A stretch of DNA of 63,965 nt, filler included, from Reclinomonas americana ATCC 50394 (taxonomy: Eukaryota): the NCBI GenBank assembly GCA_048213135.1. It is 6 parts of 3 records of this genome, joined end to end, with 100 filler letters (N's around TTAATTAATTAA, not from the genome) between each part and the next. Parts side by side here need not be neighbours in the genome. Positions count along the whole stretch, not along the records: positions 1 to 31,907 come from PS015298.1; 5 more parts are not named here. One strand, 5' to 3'. The notes beneath the pieces are model-generated. The model saw nothing but the letters and a program-made list of their open reading frames with translations. It searched no databases and had not been told where the DNA came from. A program made the position numbers and the translations under genes. This document shows positions 12,110 through 31,900 of the stretch, one piece after another. How positions within the stretch are numbered: position 1 is the first letter of the stretch; the number at the start of each line of letters is the position of its first letter.

Positions 12110-15100
12110 ATGGCTGACTTGGAGAACGGCTATCAGCAGGCGACCACGCAGCAGCAGCATGAGAGCACTCGCTTGCTCTCCTCCAGTGTCCCGCGCTCTG
12201 CACAGTTACGCGCGCGTGTGCATGCAACACACACCTATGCAACATTCACTGCTCATTGCTCTCCACCACAGTGTGACGTGGGCCGATGATCGACACATGT
12301 TCCGACGGCCGCCTATTGACTCAGGCACGCACACACACACACTCTCTGTGTCGCGACTTGCTCTCATTCGCACATTGCACAGATGACGAAGACGATGATG
12401 ACAGCAGCATGCTGGAGCCAGAGGAGGAAGAAGACGAGACCTCGTCCACAGCCGGTGACGAGTCGTCATCACACAAGCCGCAGCCTGCAGCAGCAGCAAT
12501 AGCAGCAACAGGAGGAGATGTGGAGAGCAGCACAGCAATGCCTCCTCCTGCACTCGTCGCTCGCCCACGCGGATCATCGCTGTTGGTCAGTCGCTCACTG
12601 AGTCACCCTTGCGCATGCTGTTGCTCACCTCTCTCTCTCATGACAGCGCTCGCCTGGAGCACCTGGCAACGGTGCATCGACGACGCTGAGTGACTCGGAT
12701 AGTGCGCCGTCGGCGGCGAAACGAACGCGCGATCGCACGGCCTCGTTTTACGCCATGCAGCCGGAACAAATGTCGACGCTGCCGTCGTTCAAGGTCGTGC
12801 AGCACGTGCGTGGCAACAAGGTCAAGATGGTGCACGATGATCGGTCTGTCCGTGTGTCGCCTTCCACAGGTTTTCGTGTGCTTGCAGGCGATGACTGACT
12901 CGTTCTCGTGCAGGGCGGTGCGTGTTGGCGATGGCGATCGTCCCTCTCCTCTCCTTTCCTCTTCCTCTTTCCTGCCGACGCGATTCTGTGATTTGCGACC
13001 TACCCTCTCCCACTCTATTCGCTTTAACATTCCACTTTCCTTCCGAGCGATTCTGCAATCGTCGTGACCTCTCCTCAGTCATTCTTCTCCCTTTCCAGTT
13101 CTACTGACGCGATTCTGTGACTCGTGGCCTCTTCAATTTCCTGTTTCCGGCGACTAGAGTCTGTGTCTCGTGACCTCTCCTCTCCCTCTCTTCTTTCTTC
13201 CTCTTTCCTGCCGACGCGATTCTGTGATTCGCCACCTATCCTCTCCCACTCTTCTCCCTTCCTCTTCCACTTTCCTTCCGAGCGATTCTGCAATCGTCGT
13301 GCTCTCTTCTCAGCCACTCTTCTCCCGTTCCAGTTCTACTGACGCGATTCTGTGACTCGTGGCCTCTTCGATTTCCTGTTTCCGGCGACTAGAGTCTGTG
13401 ACTCGTGACCTCTCCTCTCCCTCTCTTCTTTCTTCCTCTTTCCTTCCGAGCGATTCTGCAATCGTCGTGCCTTCTCCTCAGCCACTCTTCTCCATATGCC
13501 ATTCTCATTCCTTCCAACGTGATCTGTTATTCATCGTCTCTTTCCCCCCTGTTATCCCCGTCCCTTCCCCCGTCCCTTCCCCCGTCCCTTCCCCCCTCAT
13601 TCTCCCTTTACCTTCCCTTGTCCCTTCCCCCGCCCCTTATCCCTGCCCTCGTTGTTATCGCAGCTATTCTCCGTCTCCAAGCCGTTCTACTACGGCATCC
13701 TTCGCGGCCTGGGCTTGTGGGTGCCGGAGACGACACGTGTGCGCCTCTTCCTCTTCCTCACCCTATTCCTGCTGATCTTTGCGTGCTCCGGCAACATTGT
13801 CGGCATTATTCTCTTCAAGGAGAAGCAATTTGAGAAGGTGAAGATGGGGTGTGCGCCAGTTCTCTGCGTGTACCTTGCTTCTCATGGTCCGTGCAGTTTT
13901 ACAACATTGTTCGTGTGGCATTCTTGTTTGCGTCGGTGTTTTTCGCCATCACGTATCTGCGTTGCGTCGGGGGGTTCTTGTGCATAGCATGCGGGTCACC
14001 TTGTCGTCTCATCGCTCATTTGCCTGCACAGCCTCGAAGAACTGGCGACGACTGATGCAAGAGGCGGTCTATTCCGGTGCGTTGTTTGTCAGTCTGATTC
14101 CCCTGACCTTGTACTTACTTCTGCTCCCACAGACATTGTTAAGACCCGAAGGCACCTCAACGCGTCTGTTATTCTCGCCGTCGTGCTGCTGATCTTTGCT
14201 GTCGCCATTGACATGCCGGTGTGGATCTCGTACATGGAGGAGGAGGACATTTCCACGGTGTGGCTGGTGTGGCTGACCATTACCGGGTGCGTTGTTCACG
14301 AGAACGCCTCTCTTTCCATCTGCTCCCATCACCGCTAACTCTCATTCCACTTGCCAGCCTCTTCTTCCACGTCTACATGGTGCGAAACGTCCTGCCACTG
14401 TTCTTGGATTTCTCTTTTTCCCCCTCCGCTCACCTTGCCGCTTGTCGCAGTCTGCTGGATCGGCCATTTTTGTGGCAGTGTGCCTGCTCAAAGTCCTCGA
14501 GTGGGACAAGATGAATGAGCGCATCGCCAAGCGGTCGGAGCATGAGTCTGAGGTGAGAGAAAAGAACGAGCTCCTGTCCCCCTCATATGCTGATCTTCGA
14601 CACAGAAAACCATGATGGAACACAGTGCGCGCACTGCTGCGCTGAGTGACACCAACAAGAGGGTGGAGGTGTATCTGGCGCTCAACTTTGTAGCCTCACT
14701 ATCGCTCCTGGTCGTTGGTGCGTGTGGGAGAGAGAGCGACGAGAGGGCAAGAAACCTCACTGTCGTTTATTGCAGAGGTCTACGGCCTGGTGAGCGACTC
14801 GGCAAGCCATTTTGTGTGGTCCATGCGTTTTGCCCACACGTTGACGCTGACGATGCTGCCACTGTTGCGTGCATCACCTTTGCCTTGGCGGCCGTCGTCA
14901 AGAACTCATCTGTTCTTTTTCGTCTCCCCGCGAAACAGGCTGGCCGCAGGCTATGTCACCGCCCGAGCCTCCAAGGTCAGTGCGTCATAGTGCTGTTGCG
15001 GGAGATGCAGTATGCGCTCACTCTCTGCTGCAGGGCCGCAAGATGATTGCCCGCATGCGTGCGCACGCCGAGACTGAGGACGGTCGGAAAGGCCTGCAAG

Positions 15101-15295
15101 ACCTGCTGGTCTACTACATTGCCACCGACGCTGCCTTGCGTTTGGTACGTGTGGCCTCACATCACACTGTTCCCCATTCTCCCCCTCACCCTCCCCACAC
15201 AGTTTGGCATGCGAATGGACTCGAGCTTCATCGCCAAGGTCGTGGTCATCGGATTCACCATCATCACATTTGTTTTGGCTCGTGCCTCTTCATGA
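12110..15295 (+). CDS. Seven-TM gustatory-receptor-like (GRL / 7TM ion channel, DUF3537-like) protein, ~16 exons
   Basis: Spliced product has an acidic low-complexity N-terminus, ILRGLGLW motif, 7 hydrophobic segments, a long TM4-TM5 loop (EHSARTAALSDTNKRVEVYL) and C-terminus DLLVYYIATDAALRLFGMRMDSSFIAKVVVIGFTIITFVLARASS. Confidence 0.7.
12945..13490. repeat. Intronic tandem repeat, ~235-bp unit, ~2.3 copies
   Basis: 'ttccgagcgattctgcaatcgtcgtg' recurs at ~13040, 13276 and 13444. 'ccagttctactgacgcgattctgtgactcgtggcctcttc' recurs at ~13095 and 13330. Confidence 0.9.
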
Positions 15296-15329: not shown

Positions 15330-18300
15330 CTATACACGTTGGCCGCTAAAGATAAGGAAAAGCGCAGACGCCAGCGCTAGAAGGCTGGCAAATATCTGCA
15401 GGGAGAGGTGCCAGTGAGTCGAGAGCCACCCAACTCCCATCCCACAGCTCATCACTCACCCAGAACTGCCTCTCGCGTTCCACCACGTACTGCCGGTGTG
15501 ACTGACGCTCCTGTAACAAGCGCATCTCCGTCTGCTTCACCACGCCAGCCACCTGATCCAACAAATCGCAGTCGAGTGCCACCCGCTGCGTACGGAACGC
15601 CTCGTCGATGGAGCCCATTCGCTCACGAAGGCGGTCCAGATCGTGACGCAGATGATCTCGCTCCTCACCGACGGCGGCAAGATTCCGGTCGACTTCTCCC
15701 TTGCCCGCACGCAGTCGAGCAAGCTGCTGGTTCAGTTCTTCGAGCTGACGGCGCGTGGCCACTTGACTCTCCTGCAGGTGTTTCTCCGCGTTCTGCTTGT
15801 CGCCTTCGAGACGTTTAACCTGCTTCTGCGCCTCGCGGTCCGCCGCCTCCGCCTTGGTCACTTGGTCCGCCAGCTGCCGCCTCAGGTCTTGCTCACTCGT
15901 CTGCAGAGTGGTGACCCGAGTCGCGGCGGTGCGGAGATCACGGTCCATCTGCTGCAGGCGTGCGTCGACACGCTCGAATTCTGCCTGCGCCTTCTCGGCG
16001 GTTTCGCGCGCCGCGGCCAGCTCGGCCTCGAGCTCTCCGATGCGTCGGTTGAGAGTTTCGACCTGCGCCGCCTCTGGTAGGACACGCTCGGCGCTCTCCC
16101 GGAGCTGCTTCTCGAGGGCCGCCACACGGGCCGCCATCTCCTCCAGCCGCCGAGCGTCCTCCTTCCCCTTCCGCTCCGCCTCTGCATGCTGGCGGCTCGC
16201 CTTGCCGGCCGCAGCGTGTGCGTCGGCGTGTGCCTTGCGCAGCTGGTCGTTGAGTTCGTTCGTCTGCTGCTCCAGCTCCGCGACGTGCTTACGCAGTGCC
16301 TCGTCACCACTCGAACTCTTGGTCGTAGACATGGCAGCCGCCATCGCCGACTCGGCCAGAACGGCCGCAAATCGCTCCTGCTCCTTGGTCAGCTGTGCCT
16401 TCGCCTCAAACACGCGGCTTTCGGCCTCCACCTTGGCCGCCTCCACCTCCCGCTGCGCGCTGAGAACATGCTGTTGAACCTCGAGCAACTCCTTCGCGTG
16501 CTGATCGGTGAGAGACCGCACAGTGCTCTCCCGTCGTGCATCGGCCGCCTCCACCTGCTGTCGCAGCATTTGAACCAGCTGCTGCTCGTCGGCAAACTTG
16601 TTCTGCGCGTCGATGAGCTGGTTCTGAGCATCGGCCAGCTGCTCGGCGGCGCTGCTGGCCTTCTTCTGCGCCTCGGCGACTTGCTTGTGGGCATCCTCCA
16701 GTTCATGGCGAGCGTGCCTCAAGTCGGCATCGACGCGTTCGAGATCGCGCTCTGCCTGCGCCAGTTTGGCGCTGACCGTGTCAATCTCCGCCAGACGCGA
16801 GGTGCTGCCGGCCCTCAACACCACCAACTCCTCCCTGGCCTCGCGCAACTGCGAGCGCGCATCGGCCAGCTCCGCCTGCGCCTGCTCTGATGCGTGTGAT
16901 GATGGCGCCGCTGGGGACGCTACTGATGAAGATGATGACAGCTCGTCGACTTGCGACCTCAGCGCATTGACCTTGTCCTGTTCCTCCTGCAGTACATGCT
17001 GCAGGGCTTCCACTTGCGCAGCACGGGAAGCAATCTGACACACACGCAGAGGGACGGTGAGATCAAGAGTAAGCAGAGCAATAAATAGGAGATGCACACC
17101 TCTCGCTTCAGTGCCTCCTCGCGCTCGTGGAACTTTGCCTCAGCCTCCGTCAACCGCTTCTCGCCCTCGCCTACTCGTCCCTCGGCTTGCTTGAGATCCG
17201 ACTGTAGTTTCTCGCAGGCAGCCTTACTGCGAGCCAGCTGCTGCTCGACCTCAGCCAAGTGCCTTGACGTGTTGTCCTGCAAACAAAAATGTCACACCCT
17301 TGCGCACGCCAACGGACATGACAAAAACACTCACCTTCTCCGCCTGCGCATGGCGCACCTGTTCCTGTGCGTCGCGCGCCTGCTTCTCTGCGCGTTCCAG
17401 ATGGGCGCTCTTGACGCGCAACTCGTCCGCTTGGTCCGCCTTCGACTTTTTCACCTGGTCCAGTTCGCCCTCCAGCTGCTTCACACGCTGCTGCGATGCA
17501 TCCAGAGCCTGCTTTCTGGCCGACGCCTCCACTACTCCCTTCGTCTCCGAGTCGATCTGCAGTTGCTGAAGTTTGCTAAACTTGTGCTGCTCCTCTGACA
17601 GCTTCCGTTGCAGCCGCTCCACAGTCGACGCATTGTCGGACTCCACCAAAGCCAGCGCACGACGTGCCTCCAGGAGCTCACGCTCCCGCTGTTCAAGTAA
17701 CGCCGACAATTCCAAGTACTTTTCCATCGCCATTTCCAACGCCTCAGCAACTATGGACGGACGGATCATCGGATAAGCAACAACAACTGCAACAACAGTC
17801 GACTTCGCTTGAGCGAGTCGCACCTTCAGCCGGCACGGGCTGGTCTTCGTCAGCGTCCACCACAGCAGATGCGGAGGACGCGCCGTCACAGTTACCATTC
17901 TGCATCGCGGCACCTGTGTTCGCGTGAGGTGAGCGGGCGGCGAGACGCAAACTCTTGCCAAGCAATTGCACGCAACTCATCGAATCGCTAACATGATCTG
18001 CGACACAAGTGTGTGAGCAGCTGCGACAATGTAACACCGAGCAGCACGAGCACTCACCAACGATCCGAGTGCCCAACATGGCGGAAACGTGGTCCACACT
18101 TGACTGCATGTCGGACACCAGCGATTTCGGTGATGAAGGTGGCGATCTGGCACTGTCGTCGACTGTTGCTGCTGCGGAACGAGATTCGGGAGACGCAGCG
18201 GACGCTGCGGCAGAAGCACTCGAAGCCTTGCGTCGGTGAGCCTCGGAGACTCGCGACATGTCTTGCAGCAGTGCTGTGGCCTGTTGATAGCCGGCCGACA

Positions 18301-22812: not shown

Positions 22813-24295
22813 TTTGCCCGGCTGACTCATCTCTCTCTCTGTCTCTTGTGTGTGCGCAGGGTGCATGCGCGTGTGCTGTACATCGACATTGACATTCACC
22901 ACGGCGACGGCGTGGAGGAGGCGTTCTACACCACCGACCGCGTGATGACGGTGTCGTTCCACAAGTTTGGCGACTACTTCCCCGGCACGGGCGACATTCG
23001 CGACGTTGGTGCCGGCGTCGGCAAGTACTACTCGCTCAACTTCCCGCTGAACGACGGCATGGATGACTTTAGCTACGAGAACATTTTCCGGCCGGTGCGT
23101 CAACCCTCTCCCCTCGTCTCTTTTTCTCCCATCTCACGCTTCACAGGTCATGCAACGTGTAATGGACTTTTACCAGCCGGGCGCCGTCGTGCTGCAATGT
23201 GGTGCCGACTCGCTGACGGGTGATCGCCTCGGCTGCTTCAACTTGTCGCTACGCGGCCACGCCGACTGCGTTGAGTTTATGAAGTCGTTCAACGTGCCGC
23301 TGTTGGTGCTCGGCGGTGGCGGCTACACAATACGCAATGTGGCGCGTTGCTGGACCTACGAGACAGCCGTGCTGTTGGGCCAGGAGATCTCGGATGGTAT
23401 GTGTGTGTTTGTCTTTCTTGCTTGCATGGATTCGTGCTCACGCTGGCGAGCAAANNNNNNNNNNNNNNNNNNNNNNNNNNNNNNNNNNNNNNNNNNNNNN
23501 NNNNNNNNNNNNNNNNNNNNNNNNNNNNNNNNNNNNNNNNNNNNNNNNNNNNNNNNNNNNNNNNNNNNNNNNNNNNNNNNNNNNNNNNNNNNNNNNNNNN
23601 NNNNNNNNNNNNNNNNNNNNNNNNNNNNNNNNNNNNNNNNNNNNNNNNNNNNNNNNNNNNNNNNNNNNNNNNNNNNNNNNNNNNNNNNNNNNNNNNNNNN
23701 NNNNNNNNNNNNNNNNNNNNNNNNNNNNNNNNNNNNNNNNNNNNNNNNNNNNNNNNNNNNNNNNNNNNNNNNNNNNNNNNNNNNNNNNNNNNNNNNNNNN
23801 NNNNNNNNNNNNNNNNNNNNNNNNNNNNNNNNNNNNNNNNNNNNNNNNNNNNNNNNNNNNNNNNNNNNNNNNNNNNNNNNNNNNNNNNNNNNNNNNNNNN
23901 NNNNNNNNNNNNNNNNNNNNNNNNNNNNNNNNNNNNNNNNNNNNNNNNNNNNNNNNNNNNNNNNNNNNNNNNNNNNNNNNNNNNNNNNNNNNNNNNNNNN
24001 NNNNNNNNNNNNNNNNNNNNNNNNNNNNNNNNNNNNNNNNNNNNNNNNNNNNNNNNNNNNNNNNNNNNNNNNNNNNNNNNNNNNNNNNNNNNNNNNNNNN
24101 NNNNNNNNNNNNNNNNNNNNNNNNNNNNNNNNNNNNNNNNNNNNNNNNNNNNNNNNNNNNNNNNNNNNNCACAGAACTTCCCTACAACGACTACTACGAG
24201 TACTTTGGCCCCGACTTCCGCCTCCACATCACACCCACCAGCATGGAGAACATGAACACATCTGACCAGCTGGAAAAGTACAAGTTGCGTACCTG

Positions 24296-25976: not shown

Positions 25977-28900
25977 TCATGCATGCCCGTTAGCCTGCGG
26001 AGTCACCTCCGGCTCCACCACTGGCTCCACCACTGCCGCAGCCGTCACCGTCTCGCTCACGGGAGGCGCGACGTCGACGCTCTCCACCTGCTTCCCGTCC
26101 GCCAACTGCACCTCCAGCTCGGCGGAAAGTGCCTTGGCCTGGTTCACCTGCTCCTTGGCGGCCTTTAGCAGCGTTCCCAGTTGCTGCCGCTCGCCAAAGG
26201 CCGTGACCGCCAGTCGCGAGGCTTCGGCCAGTTGAGCACCGAGGTCGCTGATGCGCACCTCGGCTTCGTCGACGTTGAGTTTCGAGCGGCGATGCTTGAC
26301 GGCGTCGAGCTGCGCGGCCACCTCCTTGCGCTCGTCGTCGGCCTTGGCCACTCGTCGGCCCGACTCCTCGGCCAGCACACCGAGCGCATCGGCGACCAGC
26401 TTGAGCTCCTTCAGCTCGTCACACGTCGTGTCCAGCCGCAGCGCCAGCTCTCGCCGCTTGTCTTCGGCATGCGCGCGCAGGCGATTGTGTTCGGCCACAT
26501 GCTCCGCGACCGTCACATGCGCCTCGTGCAGAGCCTCCTGCAACTCGTTGATCTGGCGCTCCAGTTCACGCGCCCGCTCTTGCGCGTCGTCCGCCGCTGC
26601 ACTGCGTCGTTCCAGCGCGGCCGCCAGCAGTGCCGAGTCCGTCACCGTCACCGCCGCCACCTCTTGCCACTGATCGGTGAGCACCGTGAGATGTGCAACG
26701 CGCGCCGCCTCCTCCCGTTGCTGCGCCGTGACCGCCTCCAGCGCCACGTCCTTGGCGCGGCTGGCGTCCACCTCCACTGCCAGCGACTGTTGCAAGCGAT
26801 CAATCTCGCCAGCCAGCTCCTGCTGCCGCTGCTCCGCCATCTGCTCGCTCTGCCGCCACTGCTCCTCCATGGCTTGCAACTGGCGCGCGAGCTCGGCGCG
26901 CTCCGCCTCTGTCGCCGTCGCACACTTGTTCCGCTCGTCCAGCTCCGCTTGCAACGCCACCGCACGCCCCGTGGCGTCCTGCAGCAGTGTGACCATGCCC
27001 TTGCGCTCCTCCTCGGCAGCCGTCAGCCGCCGGTTTCCCTCTTCCACCTGCGCCAGCAGGTCGCCAACTCGGGCTTCCGTGTATCGCAGTCGCGCCGTCA
27101 GCTCGCCGCGTTCGACTCCCACGCTCTGCGCGTCTGCTCGCGCTGCCAGCACCTGCTGCTCCAGGTCGACGACTCGTGCACGCAGAGCCTCGTCCCCGCC
27201 GATAGTGGACACGTCGCTGGCAGTGGACCTGGACTGCGACAGCATGCTGGCAAAGTGTTCGTGCTCCGCGGCCATCTGCGCCATCGTGTCCCGAAGACGA
27301 CCTTCGACCTCTGCTTTGGCCGCCTCCAGCTCCCGCTGCGCGCTGAGCACCGCCTCCAGCGCCTCGCTCTTGACGCGACCAACCTCTTGCGCCGCCACCG
27401 CCTCCTGCTCGAACTGTCGTCGCTGTTCTTCGCACGCCAACAACTGGCGGGCGAGCTCGGTGCGCTCCGCCTCGGCGGCATTCGCGCATTTGTTCCGCTC
27501 GTCGAGTTCCGCCTGCAACGCCACAGCGCGAGTAGTGGCATCCTGCAGCAGCGTGACCATGCTCTTGCGCTCCTCCTCGGCGGCTGTTTGCCGCCGGTTT
27601 CCTTCCTCCACCTGCGCCAGCAAGTCGCCGACACGCGCCTCGGCGTACCGCAATCGCGCGGTCAGCTCGCCACGCTCACTCTCGCCGGCGGTCTCTGCCG
27701 CAGCAGCGCGCTGCGCGCTCTCCTCCACGGCGACCTGCAACGCACTGATGCGAGCCTCGGCCGCCTCCAGTTGAACGGCCAGGTTGACACGCGCAGTCTC
27801 CGCCGACTCCGCACCCTTCTTCGACTCCTCCACCTCGACCTGCGCAGCGGCCACCTTTTCCTCCACGCCCCGCAGTTGGAGTGCCAGCTGTGCGCGCTCG
27901 TTCTCAACCGACGCCGCTCGCTTGCCAGCCTCCTCGGCGTCGGCTTGCGCCGCAGCCGCCCGTCCAGTGGCGTCTTTGAGCAGCGCCACAAGCTCTTTCC
28001 TTTCATCCTCTGCTGCACTCACTCGCTTGCCGGCCTCCTGCAGCAGCGCTTGCAGCTCCGCAATGCGTGCTTGATAGTTGACTCGCTCCTCGTCCATGGC
28101 AGACAGCATGCGTCGCGCCTCTTGGACATCGGCACTCGCCAGCTTATCCGCCACTTGCAGCTTCGCGAGCGCCGCCTCCCTATCGCTCTCCGCAGCGGCG
28201 GCCCGCGCGGCCGACTCGGCTGCGCGCGTCTCCGCATCGAGCACACGTCGCGTGAGTTCGGCACTTGTGGTTTCAGAGGCACTGGCACGCTGCTTGGCAT
28301 CCTGCAGCTCCGCTTGCAGCGCCGCCACCGCCACACTGGTAGCCCCTCCGTCGACGCCGTCGAGTGGCGACGCTCGAGCTTCCGCATCCACCAAGCGGCG
28401 CATCATCTCCGACCGCTCGCTTTCTGCGGCGACGGCACGCTCGCTGCACTCGTCTGCTCGTGCGACGAGCACCTGCCGCTCCATTAGCATCGTGGCCAGC
28501 TGCTTTTCGAGCTCTGCAATCTGCGCCCGACTGCGTACTCCCTCGTCCTCCAACTCGTGCCGCCGCTGCTCTGCCTCCGCAATGTGTCGGCTGACCTCGG
28601 CAGCGCTTTGCGCCGCATCGGCCACCGCCTTGCGCAACGCCTCCTGCAACTCGCCCAGTTGACGCTCAAACTGTCCCGCGCGGCGCTCCGAACTGGCGGC
28701 GCTTGTGGTGCTCAGCTCCTCCAGAATACGAATGTGATCCACGAGCTGCTGTACGCCGGCACTTTCGTGACCGTGCCAGGCCTCGGCCGCCACCAGCGCC
28801 TCTCGTTTCTGCTGCGCGTCAGCGGCCGTAGCTTCCAGCTGTGCACGCAGAGCGCTCACTTCGGACTGCCAGTGTACCACCACCTCGGCATGCTCGCCAG

Positions 28901-31900
28901 CCAGCTTGCGCGTAGAGGCCTCGTGGCGCGCATCCGCCTCGGCCACTTGCACACGCAATGCGTCGGCGGCACTGCGCATGTCACTGAGCTCGGCGCGAGC
29001 AGCGGCGAGATCGCGATGCGCCTGGGCCAGTCGCGCACTCGCCGTGTCGATTTGCGCCACGTGAGCCGCCGTCGTTGCTCGCAGCACCACCACCTCACCC
29101 TCCGCCTTGTGCAAGCGCGCACGCACATCCTCCAGTTCATCGACCGACGCCGTCGGCAAGGCCAGGCTGTCAGCCGATGGTGAACGCAGGAGGTGTAGTT
29201 CTGCCGCCTGCAATTCCTCTACCCGCATTCGCAGCTCTGCCGCCGCCGCGCGACCCTCGGCCGATTCGGTGAGGAGCTGCTCAATGTGCCTCTCCAGACG
29301 ATCGAAGCGTTGCGCGGAGACCAGTTTCTGATGAAAGGAAAAGCATTTGTCAGCAACAAATTTTCTGTGGTTGGAAGACGATCGCCACGCACATCATCCT
29401 CGGCCGTGCGCACAGCCCGCTCGAGTTCCGCACGCAGCCGCTGGACTTCGTGGTGCGCCATCTCCAACTCTCGCTCCTTGTCGCCGATATCACGCAGCAG
29501 GGCCTCCACACGGTGTGAGCACTCGACTTCGTTGCGACGCATATCCTGCTCCAGATCGGCCAGCTCGTGCTCCAGGCTCTCCACAGTGACCTCGAGATGA
29601 CCAATGCCATCGGCAGCAACCAGTTTCTGACAAACCAAACTCAAAAATGTCAGCTTCTCGACACCGAGCACAGAGTGGAAACGACTGCGCACCTCTGCTT
29701 GCGCGGCGGCGAGAATGCGCTCAAATTCCGCTTGCATCTTGCGTGCCGTATCGCGCGCCACAGCCAGCTCAGACTCGAGATCTCCAATGTGCCGGTTGAG
29801 CGTCTCAACGTGCGCCGCCGCTGTAGCGTCTCGTTCCAGTGCATGCCGATCTGACTTTTCACGCTCGGCGCTCTCCCGGAGCTGCTTCTCGAGGGCCGCC
29901 ACACGGGCCGTCATCTCCTGCAGCCGCCGAGCGTCCTCCTTCCCCTTCCGCTCCGCCTCTGCGTGTTGTCGGCTGGCCTTGCCGGCCGCAGCGTGTGCGT
30001 CCGGTGTGTGCCTTGCGCAGCTGTTCGTTGAGCTCGTTGATCTGCTGCTCCAGCTCCGCGACATGCTTGCGCTGCGCCTCGTCACCACTCGAATTCTTGG
30101 TCGCCGACACGGCAGCCGCCATGGCTGACTCGGCCAACACAGTCGCAAATCGCTCCTGCTCCTTGGTCAGCTGTGCCATCGTCTCACGCACGCGGCTTTC
30201 GGCCTCCGCCTTGGCCGCCTCCACCTCCCGTTGCGCGCTGAGCACCTTTTGCAGAACCTCGAACAACTCCTTCGCGTGCTGATCGGTGAGCGAACGCACA
30301 GTGCTCTCCCATCGTGCATCGGCCGCCTCCACCTGCTGTCGCAGCATTTGAACCAGCTGCTGCTCGTCGGCAAAGTTGTTCTGCGTGTCGATGAGCTGGT
30401 TCTGAGCATCGGACAGCTGCTCGGCGGCGCTGCTGGCCTTCCTCTGTGCCTCGGCGACCTGCCTGTGGGCCTCCTCCAGCTGGGCGTCGACACGTTGGAG
30501 ATCGCGTTGCGCCTGCGCGAGTTTCGCGCTGACCGTGTCGATCTCCGCCCGACGCGAGGCGCTGCCGGCCCTCAATACCACCAGCTCCTCCCTGGCCTCG
30601 CGCAACTGAGATCGCGCATCGGCCAGTTCTGCCAGCACGGTATCGGTAGCGCCGTTGGTGGCCTGGGCGACGGGAGAGAGAGAACAACGAGACAAAATGA
30701 GTAACTTTCACCACATGGTAAAGGAGAAAACGATCAGTGTCCACCTGCGCGCGTTTGTTTGCCTCCCGTGACTTGTGGCTCGGTGCCGCCGACCCGTTTT
30801 CCACATCGGTCGCCTTTTGCTTCAACTCATTCTCGGCGAGCAGGCGTCGTCGCGTGGCCTCGATAATCTCCTGCTGCAGCTCGTCGCGGTCCTTCTCCAG
30901 CCGCCTCACCCGCTTCTGCGCCGCCTCCAGTTCGTGCTTGGTGGCCGCCATTTCCGCTGTGCCGTCCACGGCGGCATCGCTCTGCCACCGCTGCAGCTCC
31001 TTGAGTTTGAGGCGCTCCTTGCGCAGCGACATTTGCATGGTGTCCATTATGACGGTCTTTTCAGCGTTCGACGCCGCCAGCGCACGCCGAGCCTCGGCCA
31101 GTTCCTCGTCGCGCTTCTGCAGCAAGCTCGCGAGCTCGCGGTGCATCTGCATGGCTGCTTCCACTGCCTCCACAACTTTTTGGCGAGGGAAGCGCGATGA
31201 GAACGACGGCACAAACAGTGGTGGCGACGGGAGGCATACCTTCCGCGGGCAACAGCGCGTCGTGATCAGCCGCTTGCGCAGCAGCCGAAACAACAACAAG
31301 AGGGGGAGGAACATCGATGGAGACAATGTGCTGTTCGACGGGTGAAAGTTGCGGCGAGGCGTCTGCAGCAACAAAACATGAGTGAAGGATATATTGTGAC
31401 AACAGACGAGTTCGCGCAACGGAGCGACTCCTCGACATGCTCTGCAGTGGAGGGAGGGAGAGGGTCAGCGTGAGAGGGAGAGGAGGGGAGGCGATGTGAA
31501 GCGACGGTGACGCACGAATGACATGCTGCGAAAGCATGTGGGAGACCGAGTGGACCTTGCTCGACACACGCGATACGAGCAACTCGGAGGACTCGGGAGG
31601 TGGAGACACGCGTCTTTCCTCACTGGCACCAGCTGGTTGCCGTCGAGTAATTTCGTGAAGCAGCGCAGTTGCCTGCTGCCAGCCTTGCATCAGTTGTTGC
31701 TCCGCCAGGTGCAGACGCTGTCGGGTGGAGAAGAGCGAGGCCTGGCTGGCCTCCAGTTCCATCTCCAGTTGGTGGACTCGGGAGGCGGTGGGGTCGGAGA
31801 TCTTTGTACGGGCAAAGGGGTAAGAAGAGGGAGGGAGGGAAGAGGGAGGGAAGGAAGAGGGATGGGGGAAGGGTGCAGGGTGAAGGGGAGAGGTGAAAGA

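Follow-up and report, generated by a model that had tools for sequence, protein, structure and literature searches.

The stretch of DNA analysed here, referred to as the window, comprises 63,965 nucleotides, filler included, from Reclinomonas americana ATCC 50394 (NCBI GenBank assembly GCA_048213135.1). At positions 12110–15295, on the plus strand, lies a gene that an open reading frame (ORF) track does not display: the interval holds no long open frame, only stop-to-stop pieces in three frames bordered by GT and AG, and the longest coding piece in a single frame runs to 67 codons. The original prediction had placed here a protist relative of the insect gustatory receptors (GRs) that ORF tracks would miss, and on that last point it was right. 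The channels that serve insects as smell and taste receptors have recently been traced to scattered protist and plant proteins, the protist gustatory-receptor-like (GRL) proteins having been published by Benton, Dessimoz & Moi (2020, eLife 9:e62507; hereafter Benton 2020). We describe the gene and its predicted product, which is probably a subunit of the Class-A seven-transmembrane ion channels (7TMICs), of the DUF3537-like type.

Fourteen exons join into a coding sequence (CDS) of 1476 nt and 491 codons that opens with an ATG at 12110 and has the terminal TGA (15293–15295) as its sole stop. The many small exons foreseen for this interval are thus present, with sizes of 22–200 nt, and their count is 14 instead of about 16. 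All 13 introns have GT..AG ends, with donors that are mostly GTGCGT-like and an acceptor that is always CAG behind a pyrimidine tract. Eleven of them measure 53–81 nt; the remaining two, of 197 and 816 nt, both belong to the part of the gene with exons 1–3. We take the locus to be a genuine spliceosomal gene, with 14 exons, of an intron-rich eukaryote. Phase 0 holds for the last two introns, as had been pointed out, which carries little weight because 7 of the 13 introns are in phase 0; as intron positions are also unconserved between kingdoms (Benton 2020), we discarded these two introns as a signature of the family.

The first three exons encode an acidic N-terminal region (residues 1–160) with much Ser and Ala. 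Exon 1 (12110–12185; amino acids (aa) 1–25) begins with the first ATG of its frame, which has A at −3 and G at +4, and ends in phase 1. Exon 2 (12383–12585; aa 26–93), with acceptor CAG and donor GTCAGT, is itself acidic and Ser/Ala-rich, and its product is probably a disordered tail. Exon 3 (12647–12847; aa 94–160) has an alternative in-frame donor at 12854, which would move the exon end from 12847 to 12853 and add Val-Arg; the frame is kept either way. The exon 3 donor and exons 1 and 2 are the least certain parts of the predicted model. Upstream exons are nevertheless needed, because no start codon lies within exon 4. Intron 3 (12848–13663; 816 nt) is CT-rich and carries a 235-nt tandem repeat (12960–13458; 2.1 copies, 92% match) as well as a 12-nt repeat, CCCCGTCCCTTC, in 6.9 copies at about 13556–13638.

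The remaining exons encode the membrane part of the protein. Exon 4 (13664–13837; aa 161–218) specifies a helix that precedes the first transmembrane segment (TM1) and carries the motif LRGLGLW (13700–13720), followed by TM1 itself; exon 5 (13897–13960; aa 219–239) specifies TM2, and exon 6 (14032–14076; aa 240–254) the first portion of inner loop 1. Exon 7 (14133–14286; aa 255–305) covers the remainder of that loop, TM3, an acidic outer loop 2 and the start of TM4, whose middle falls in exon 8 (14358–14379; aa 306–313), an exon of 22 nt that is included because the frame between exons 7 and 9 requires it. TM4 is long and ends in exon 9 (14451–14552; aa 314–347), which also encodes a charged extension into inner loop 2. 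Exon 10 (14606–14717; aa 348–384) contains the block EH...L S.TN.R (14618–14665) and then TM5, which ends in exon 11 (14776–14868; aa 385–415) ahead of outer loop 3 and TM6. Intron 11 (14869–14949; 81 nt) is in frame and free of stops, so that its retention would insert 27 aa directly after TM6 and leave the protein unbroken; with the intron spliced out, the motif VTARA stands two residues past the Leu-Leu that closes TM6, near its place in the published rows. VTARA (14955–14969) is encoded by exon 12 (14950–14975; aa 416–424). Exon 13 (15034–15144; aa 425–461), flanked by phase-0 introns on both sides, encodes a basic inner loop 3 and an amphipathic TM7a candidate (LLVYY from 15103), and exon 14 (15203–15295; aa 462–491 plus the TGA) a turn, FGMRMD, and TM7b (15221–15280).

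Codon usage supports this model. With a log-likelihood ratio (LLR) for which three long ORFs in the window served as training set, the spliced CDS scored +180.9 bits in frame, whereas the two alternative frames came out at −318.3 and −147.5; each of the 14 exons scored best in its modelled phase, and 13 of them scored positively. Exon 1 reached +17.3 in phase against −23.4 and −11.9, and the in-phase values of the other tail exons are modest (exon 2, +8.8; exon 3, +7.9). Among the membrane exons, exons 7, 9, 11 and 13 scored +28.9, +21.5, +11.1 and +29.1 in phase, and the shortness of exon 8 leaves it with a weak score (+0.9). Introns scored about zero or negative in most frames, and the per-codon value of intron 3 is about zero in all of them.

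The splice signals that we relied on can be read independently from another gene in the window, a class I histone deacetylase encoded on the plus strand. Its exon at 22999–23094 aligns with residues 212–243 of human HDAC1 and its exon at 23147–23395 with residues 244–324; the two are parted by a 52-nt intron of the form GTGCGT..CAG and abut at HDAC1 residues 243/244. As these exons join across the same type of intron, the splice consensus and intron size used here are real features of this genome.

A simple Kyte–Doolittle hydropathy scan of the spliced product gave the seven hydrophobic segments that the original prediction had counted, at about residues 185–209, 219–239, 265–286, 297–326, 367–390, 397–415 and 468–487. 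The peaks themselves lie at 188–206, 222–240, 268–286, 294–329 (a single long segment), 372–393 and 469–487, with a weaker one at 397–415. The inner loops (25, 40 and 52 aa) are longer than the outer loops (9, 10 and 6 aa), and Lys and Arg are distributed very unevenly, with 27 on the side that holds the N-terminus and loops 2–3, 4–5 and 6–7 and 4 on the opposite side. The positive-inside rule thus predicts an intracellular N-terminus, as had been expected, with the long loops on the cytoplasmic side and the short ones outside. TM4 spans 30 residues and leads into a charged TM4–TM5 loop of 40 aa without Pro or Gly, TM6 continues into a basic stretch, and the last loop ends with an amphipathic segment, GLQDLLVYYIATDAALRLFG, and a short Gly-containing turn ahead of the final helix. 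According to Benton & Himmel (2023), 7TMICs are defined structurally by long TM4–6 helices that extend below the bundle as an anchor domain and by a TM7 split into TM7a and TM7b. The long TM4, the charged extensions free of Pro and Gly, and the amphipathic segment with its turn are hints, in sequence, of such an anchor domain and split TM7.

We compared the product with the published GRL/DUF3537 material, namely supplementary file 1 (17 protist GRLs, most of them up to residue 400) and supplementary file 6 (the trimmed alignment, both parts) of Benton 2020; identities and column counts were made by eye. Three regions resemble the DUF3537-like rows. The first, before TM5, agrees at six of seven conserved columns, including the invariant His, and has 8 of 27 residues in common with AT2G21080; the pattern H..R...L..TN.R that had been reported in the TM4–TM5 loop is found here, from aa 353, as HSARTAALSDTNKR. 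The second, VTARA after TM6, agrees at four of four conserved columns and compares with VTAKA in Vitrella GRL3–6 and ITH[RK]A in plants. The third is the TM7a/7b block, which agrees at seven of nine conserved columns and in which DLLVYY......LRLFGMRMD stands against ALVTYL......ITVYGFLVD of plants and green algae. Both halves of the sequence first described for this region, GLQDLLVYY and LRLFGMRMD..FIAKV, are present from aa 444, separated by six residues rather than five, and the plant DUF3537 motif that had been cited beside them is close to the ALVTYLENNKAGITVYGFLVDR printed in the alignment. The final 48 residues align without gaps with the final 48 of TtraGRL5 (9 of 48 identical), the TM7a core has 8 of 19 residues identical to TtraGRL6, and the conserved Gly lies 28 residues from the C-terminus, exactly as in TtraGRL4 and TtraGRL5. 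At the other end of the protein, where LRGLGLW was indeed found at aa 173–179, a Gly and a hydrophobic residue about nine positions before TM1 correspond, again by eye, to a near-invariant Gly column (alignment block 1, column 41).

How readily such resemblance arises by chance was gauged by shuffling. Residue sets were taken at the best-conserved columns of 13, and then 16, published DUF3537-like rows; the 16 comprise TtraGRL4–6, PfunGRL1, VbraGRL3–6, CpriGRL1, MpusGRL1 and six Arabidopsis rows, the Spun, Spal, Ttra1–3 and Vbra1–2 rows and the animal sequences being left out as animal-like. Using such sets as strict pass/fail patterns proved too brittle, because conservative or non-conservative changes break the pattern at two columns of TM7a and one before TM5, and column counts with shuffles were used instead. 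Single blocks are common, each block's score being reached somewhere in 33–49% of 100,000 shuffles. The three blocks appeared in order in 1,123 of 100,000 shuffles, a count that fell to 61 once a C-terminal anchor was demanded. Once the invariant His and family-like spacing were added (16-row sets), 13 plain shuffles and 8 helix/loop-preserving shuffles, out of 400,000 each, did as well as the protein, and the C-terminal anchor on top of these reduced the counts to 1 (plain) and 0 (segment-preserving); the 13-row sets gave counts of 4 and 3. The block test was passed by none of 121 other proteins and by none of 169 ORFs of the window (0 of 290 together), controls that include no real membrane proteins. 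These figures argue against chance and are no proof of membership.

Taken together, these features make it fairly probable, as judged from sequence, that the gene encodes a DUF3537-like Class-A 7TMIC subunit, of a class that, according to a 2023 preprint, takes in DUF3537 and unicellular members among thousands of 7TMICs over the tree of life. Benton 2020 screened for GRLs by five criteria: (i) reciprocal similarity, by sequence or HMM, to a known GRL or DUF3537 protein, (ii) a length of about 350–500 aa, (iii) seven TMs, (iv) an N-terminus inside and (v) intracellular loops longer than extracellular ones. Criteria ii–v, four of the five, describe the product well, with its 491 aa, seven hydrophobic segments, N-terminus predicted inside and longer inner loops. 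By analogy with the solved insect Orco, odorant receptor (OR) and GR channels, four subunits would surround a central pore lined by TM7b, and an anchor domain holding the tetramer would be built from TM7a and the long stretches of TM4, TM5 and TM6 that reach into the cytoplasm. The same analogy suggests that some ligand or signal may gate a cation current.

By eye, the nearest known proteins appear to be Thecamonas GRL4–6, Vitrella GRL3–6 and the plant and green-algal DUF3537 proteins. The Thecamonas and Vitrella proteins resemble the product in size, seven-helix layout, a variable N-terminal tail, the TM7a/7b block and the His before TM5. They differ from it in an identity too low for exon-level search tools to make the link, in gene structure (13 introns here, whereas most of those organisms have few; Benton 2020) and in the column after the His, which is hydrophobic in them and Arg here. 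With plant and green-algal DUF3537 (PF12056) the product shares the TM7a/7b pattern, the post-TM6 [IV]T.[KR]A and a TM7 in which the animal motif is unrecognizable, whereas inner loop 3 of the plant proteins is longer (Benton 2020). Likeness to insect Orco, ORs and GRs (PF02949, PF08395; Orco structure 6C70) extends to the predicted inside N-terminus, long inner and short outer loops, long TM4, a C-terminal helix-turn-helix at the TM7a/TM7b site, and the Gly and hydrophobic residue before TM1; in contrast, their TM7 motif agrees only at Thr and there is no detectable sequence similarity. PHTF, the Class-B 7TMIC, shares the layout at the level of the superfamily (Benton & Himmel 2023); its inner loop 1 exceeds 300 aa, against 25 aa here, and its N-terminal region measures about 100 residues.

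Several observations weigh against this assignment. Within the protein, TM6 is only weakly hydrophobic and the first outer loop contains three Lys; a column that is hydrophobic in every published row, three residues past the conserved His, is Arg; and two TM7a columns agree only through conservative substitutes (Tyr and Leu). The animal GR/GRL TM7 motif, (T/S)Yhhhhh(Q/K/E)(F/L/M), agrees at one of four positions, with only Thr fitting in alignment register (T-I-ITFVL-A-R). This motif is considered diagnostic, not definitive, and the plant and fungal members have lost it too (Benton 2020). The claimed kinship with the GR/OR superfamily is supported by the four criteria and the three colinear blocks, with the animal motif against it. 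The shuffle figures are post hoc, in that columns were picked after the protein had been seen and thresholds were set to the observed scores. Finally, the results listed by a literature search show no demonstrated channel function for any DUF3537 protein or protist GRL, and the mechanism outlined above is drawn by analogy.

Database searches add to these points. Queries were single exon translations or unspliced pieces, the longest coding piece being 67 aa, and the exon-level signal is halved because the last intron cuts the most conserved block. For eight of eight exon translations, all short pieces with the key block split, Pfam returned no family at E≤10, PF12056 included. A sequence search of the PDB at E≤10 gave no matches for exons 13, 14 and 4; exon 7 matched a 37-aa photosystem subunit (E 1.1), which we take to be chance. 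A word-based search of longer proteins found none of 62 candidates at E≤0.01 for exon 4 (58 aa) and none of 19 at E≤10 for exon 13 with four flanking intron-coded codons, and the ESM Atlas held no usable match to exons 13 and 4. When exon 4 was compared by phmmer with 1.84 billion representatives, the lone match (E 4.5e-5) was a tandem-repeat protein that aligned via a repeated short word. Among metagenome contigs, exon 4 matched one locus, a 24-residue stretch of a small membrane protein on a bacterial contig, which we regard as false. No paralogues were found within the window by tblastn.

In the strongest alternative, the gene encodes a lineage-specific multi-pass protein of another fold, with seven helices and its N-terminus inside, whose likeness to GRL/DUF3537 proteins reflects chance and membrane-helix composition. 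The failure of exon-level searches to return a relative or family, the absence of the full animal TM7 motif, the post hoc nature of the block test and the ease with which single blocks turn up in shuffles all favour it. Against it, the three blocks are in order, with family-like spacing and correctly placed with respect to TM5, TM6 and the C-terminus, a combination that only 8–13 of 400,000 shuffles reproduced; the conserved Gly stands as far from the C-terminus as in two Thecamonas GRLs; and loop lengths and charge pattern fit the family criteria. We consider this alternative unlikely, if well worth keeping in mind.

A second alternative concerns the gene rather than the fold: the model may be partly wrong or the locus unexpressed, with exons 1–3 belonging to another transcript or the whole being a frame-keeping pseudogene. 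Exons 1–3 are indeed low in complexity with modest codon scores, both long introns lie in their part of the gene, and the exon 3 donor is ambiguous. On the other side, 14 exons join without a stop, each scoring best in the modelled phase, exon 4 needs a start from upstream, and published Thecamonas GRLs have long Ser- or acid-rich N-terminal tails of their own. This makes an error or a pseudogene improbable.

Membership of another seven-helix family, whether as a G-protein-coupled receptor (GPCR), a PAQR/AdipoR-type receptor or a PHTF protein, has seven helices and the cytoplasmic N-terminus of PAQR proteins in its favour and is very improbable, given that the charge distribution puts the N-terminus inside and not outside as in GPCRs, that TM7b contains no His where PAQR proteins need one in the last helix, that the first inner loop lacks the great length of PHTF, and that Pfam assigned none of the eight exons searched to any family. 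AdipoR1 served as a look-alike control in Benton 2020.

Returning to a Class-A 7TMIC subunit, a bolder version of this reading can be entertained. On this view the gene would come from a Class-A lineage of deep divergence, in a eukaryote absent from large public protein sets, and would stand between the 'distant' GRLs of Thecamonas and Vitrella and plant DUF3537, with a long acidic cytoplasmic tail undescribed for the family. Neither exon 4 nor a nearby WD40 ORF has a close match in large public protein sets. We regard this version as doubtful.

The surroundings of the gene are varied. A convergent, coiled-coil-like ORF of 597 codons (15346–17139, minus strand) terminates roughly 50 nt away from the stop codon of the gene; its tropomyosin-like Pfam match is weak and stays below threshold (E 5.5e-4). 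Also on the minus strand are an ORF with a galactosyltransferase domain (5018–6196; PF01762, E 7e-11), an ORF of 1138 codons (25977–29393) for which Pfam gave no family above threshold, and the WD40-repeat ORF of 610 codons (44315–46147). Compared with 5.8 billion protein clusters, this last ORF matched at best generic WD40 proteins, at 24–37% identity, and nothing near-identical; the genome is therefore missing from that collection, and the want of a self-match for exon 4 is uninformative as to annotation. The histone deacetylase gene is interrupted downstream by an assembly gap (a run of N). A low-GC island from 23457 to beyond 23900 is a run of N, an assembly gap, and the many six-frame ORFs there are artefacts of the Ns; further dips in composition occur at about 38–40 kb and 48–50 kb. 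A search of Rfam over the whole window gave no match.

Protist GRLs have been known since 2020, and one more member adds little in principle. The gene described here does illustrate how a series of 22–200-nt exons can conceal such genes from ORF scans and prokaryote-style gene callers, and it would provide one more sequence to connect the branch of Thecamonas and Vitrella with that of plants. A member that expresses well could serve to test whether the DUF3537-like branch forms channels. If the gene does represent a divergent Class-A lineage, it could help to root the Class-A tree and may offer a compact subunit, neither plant nor animal, for such channel tests.

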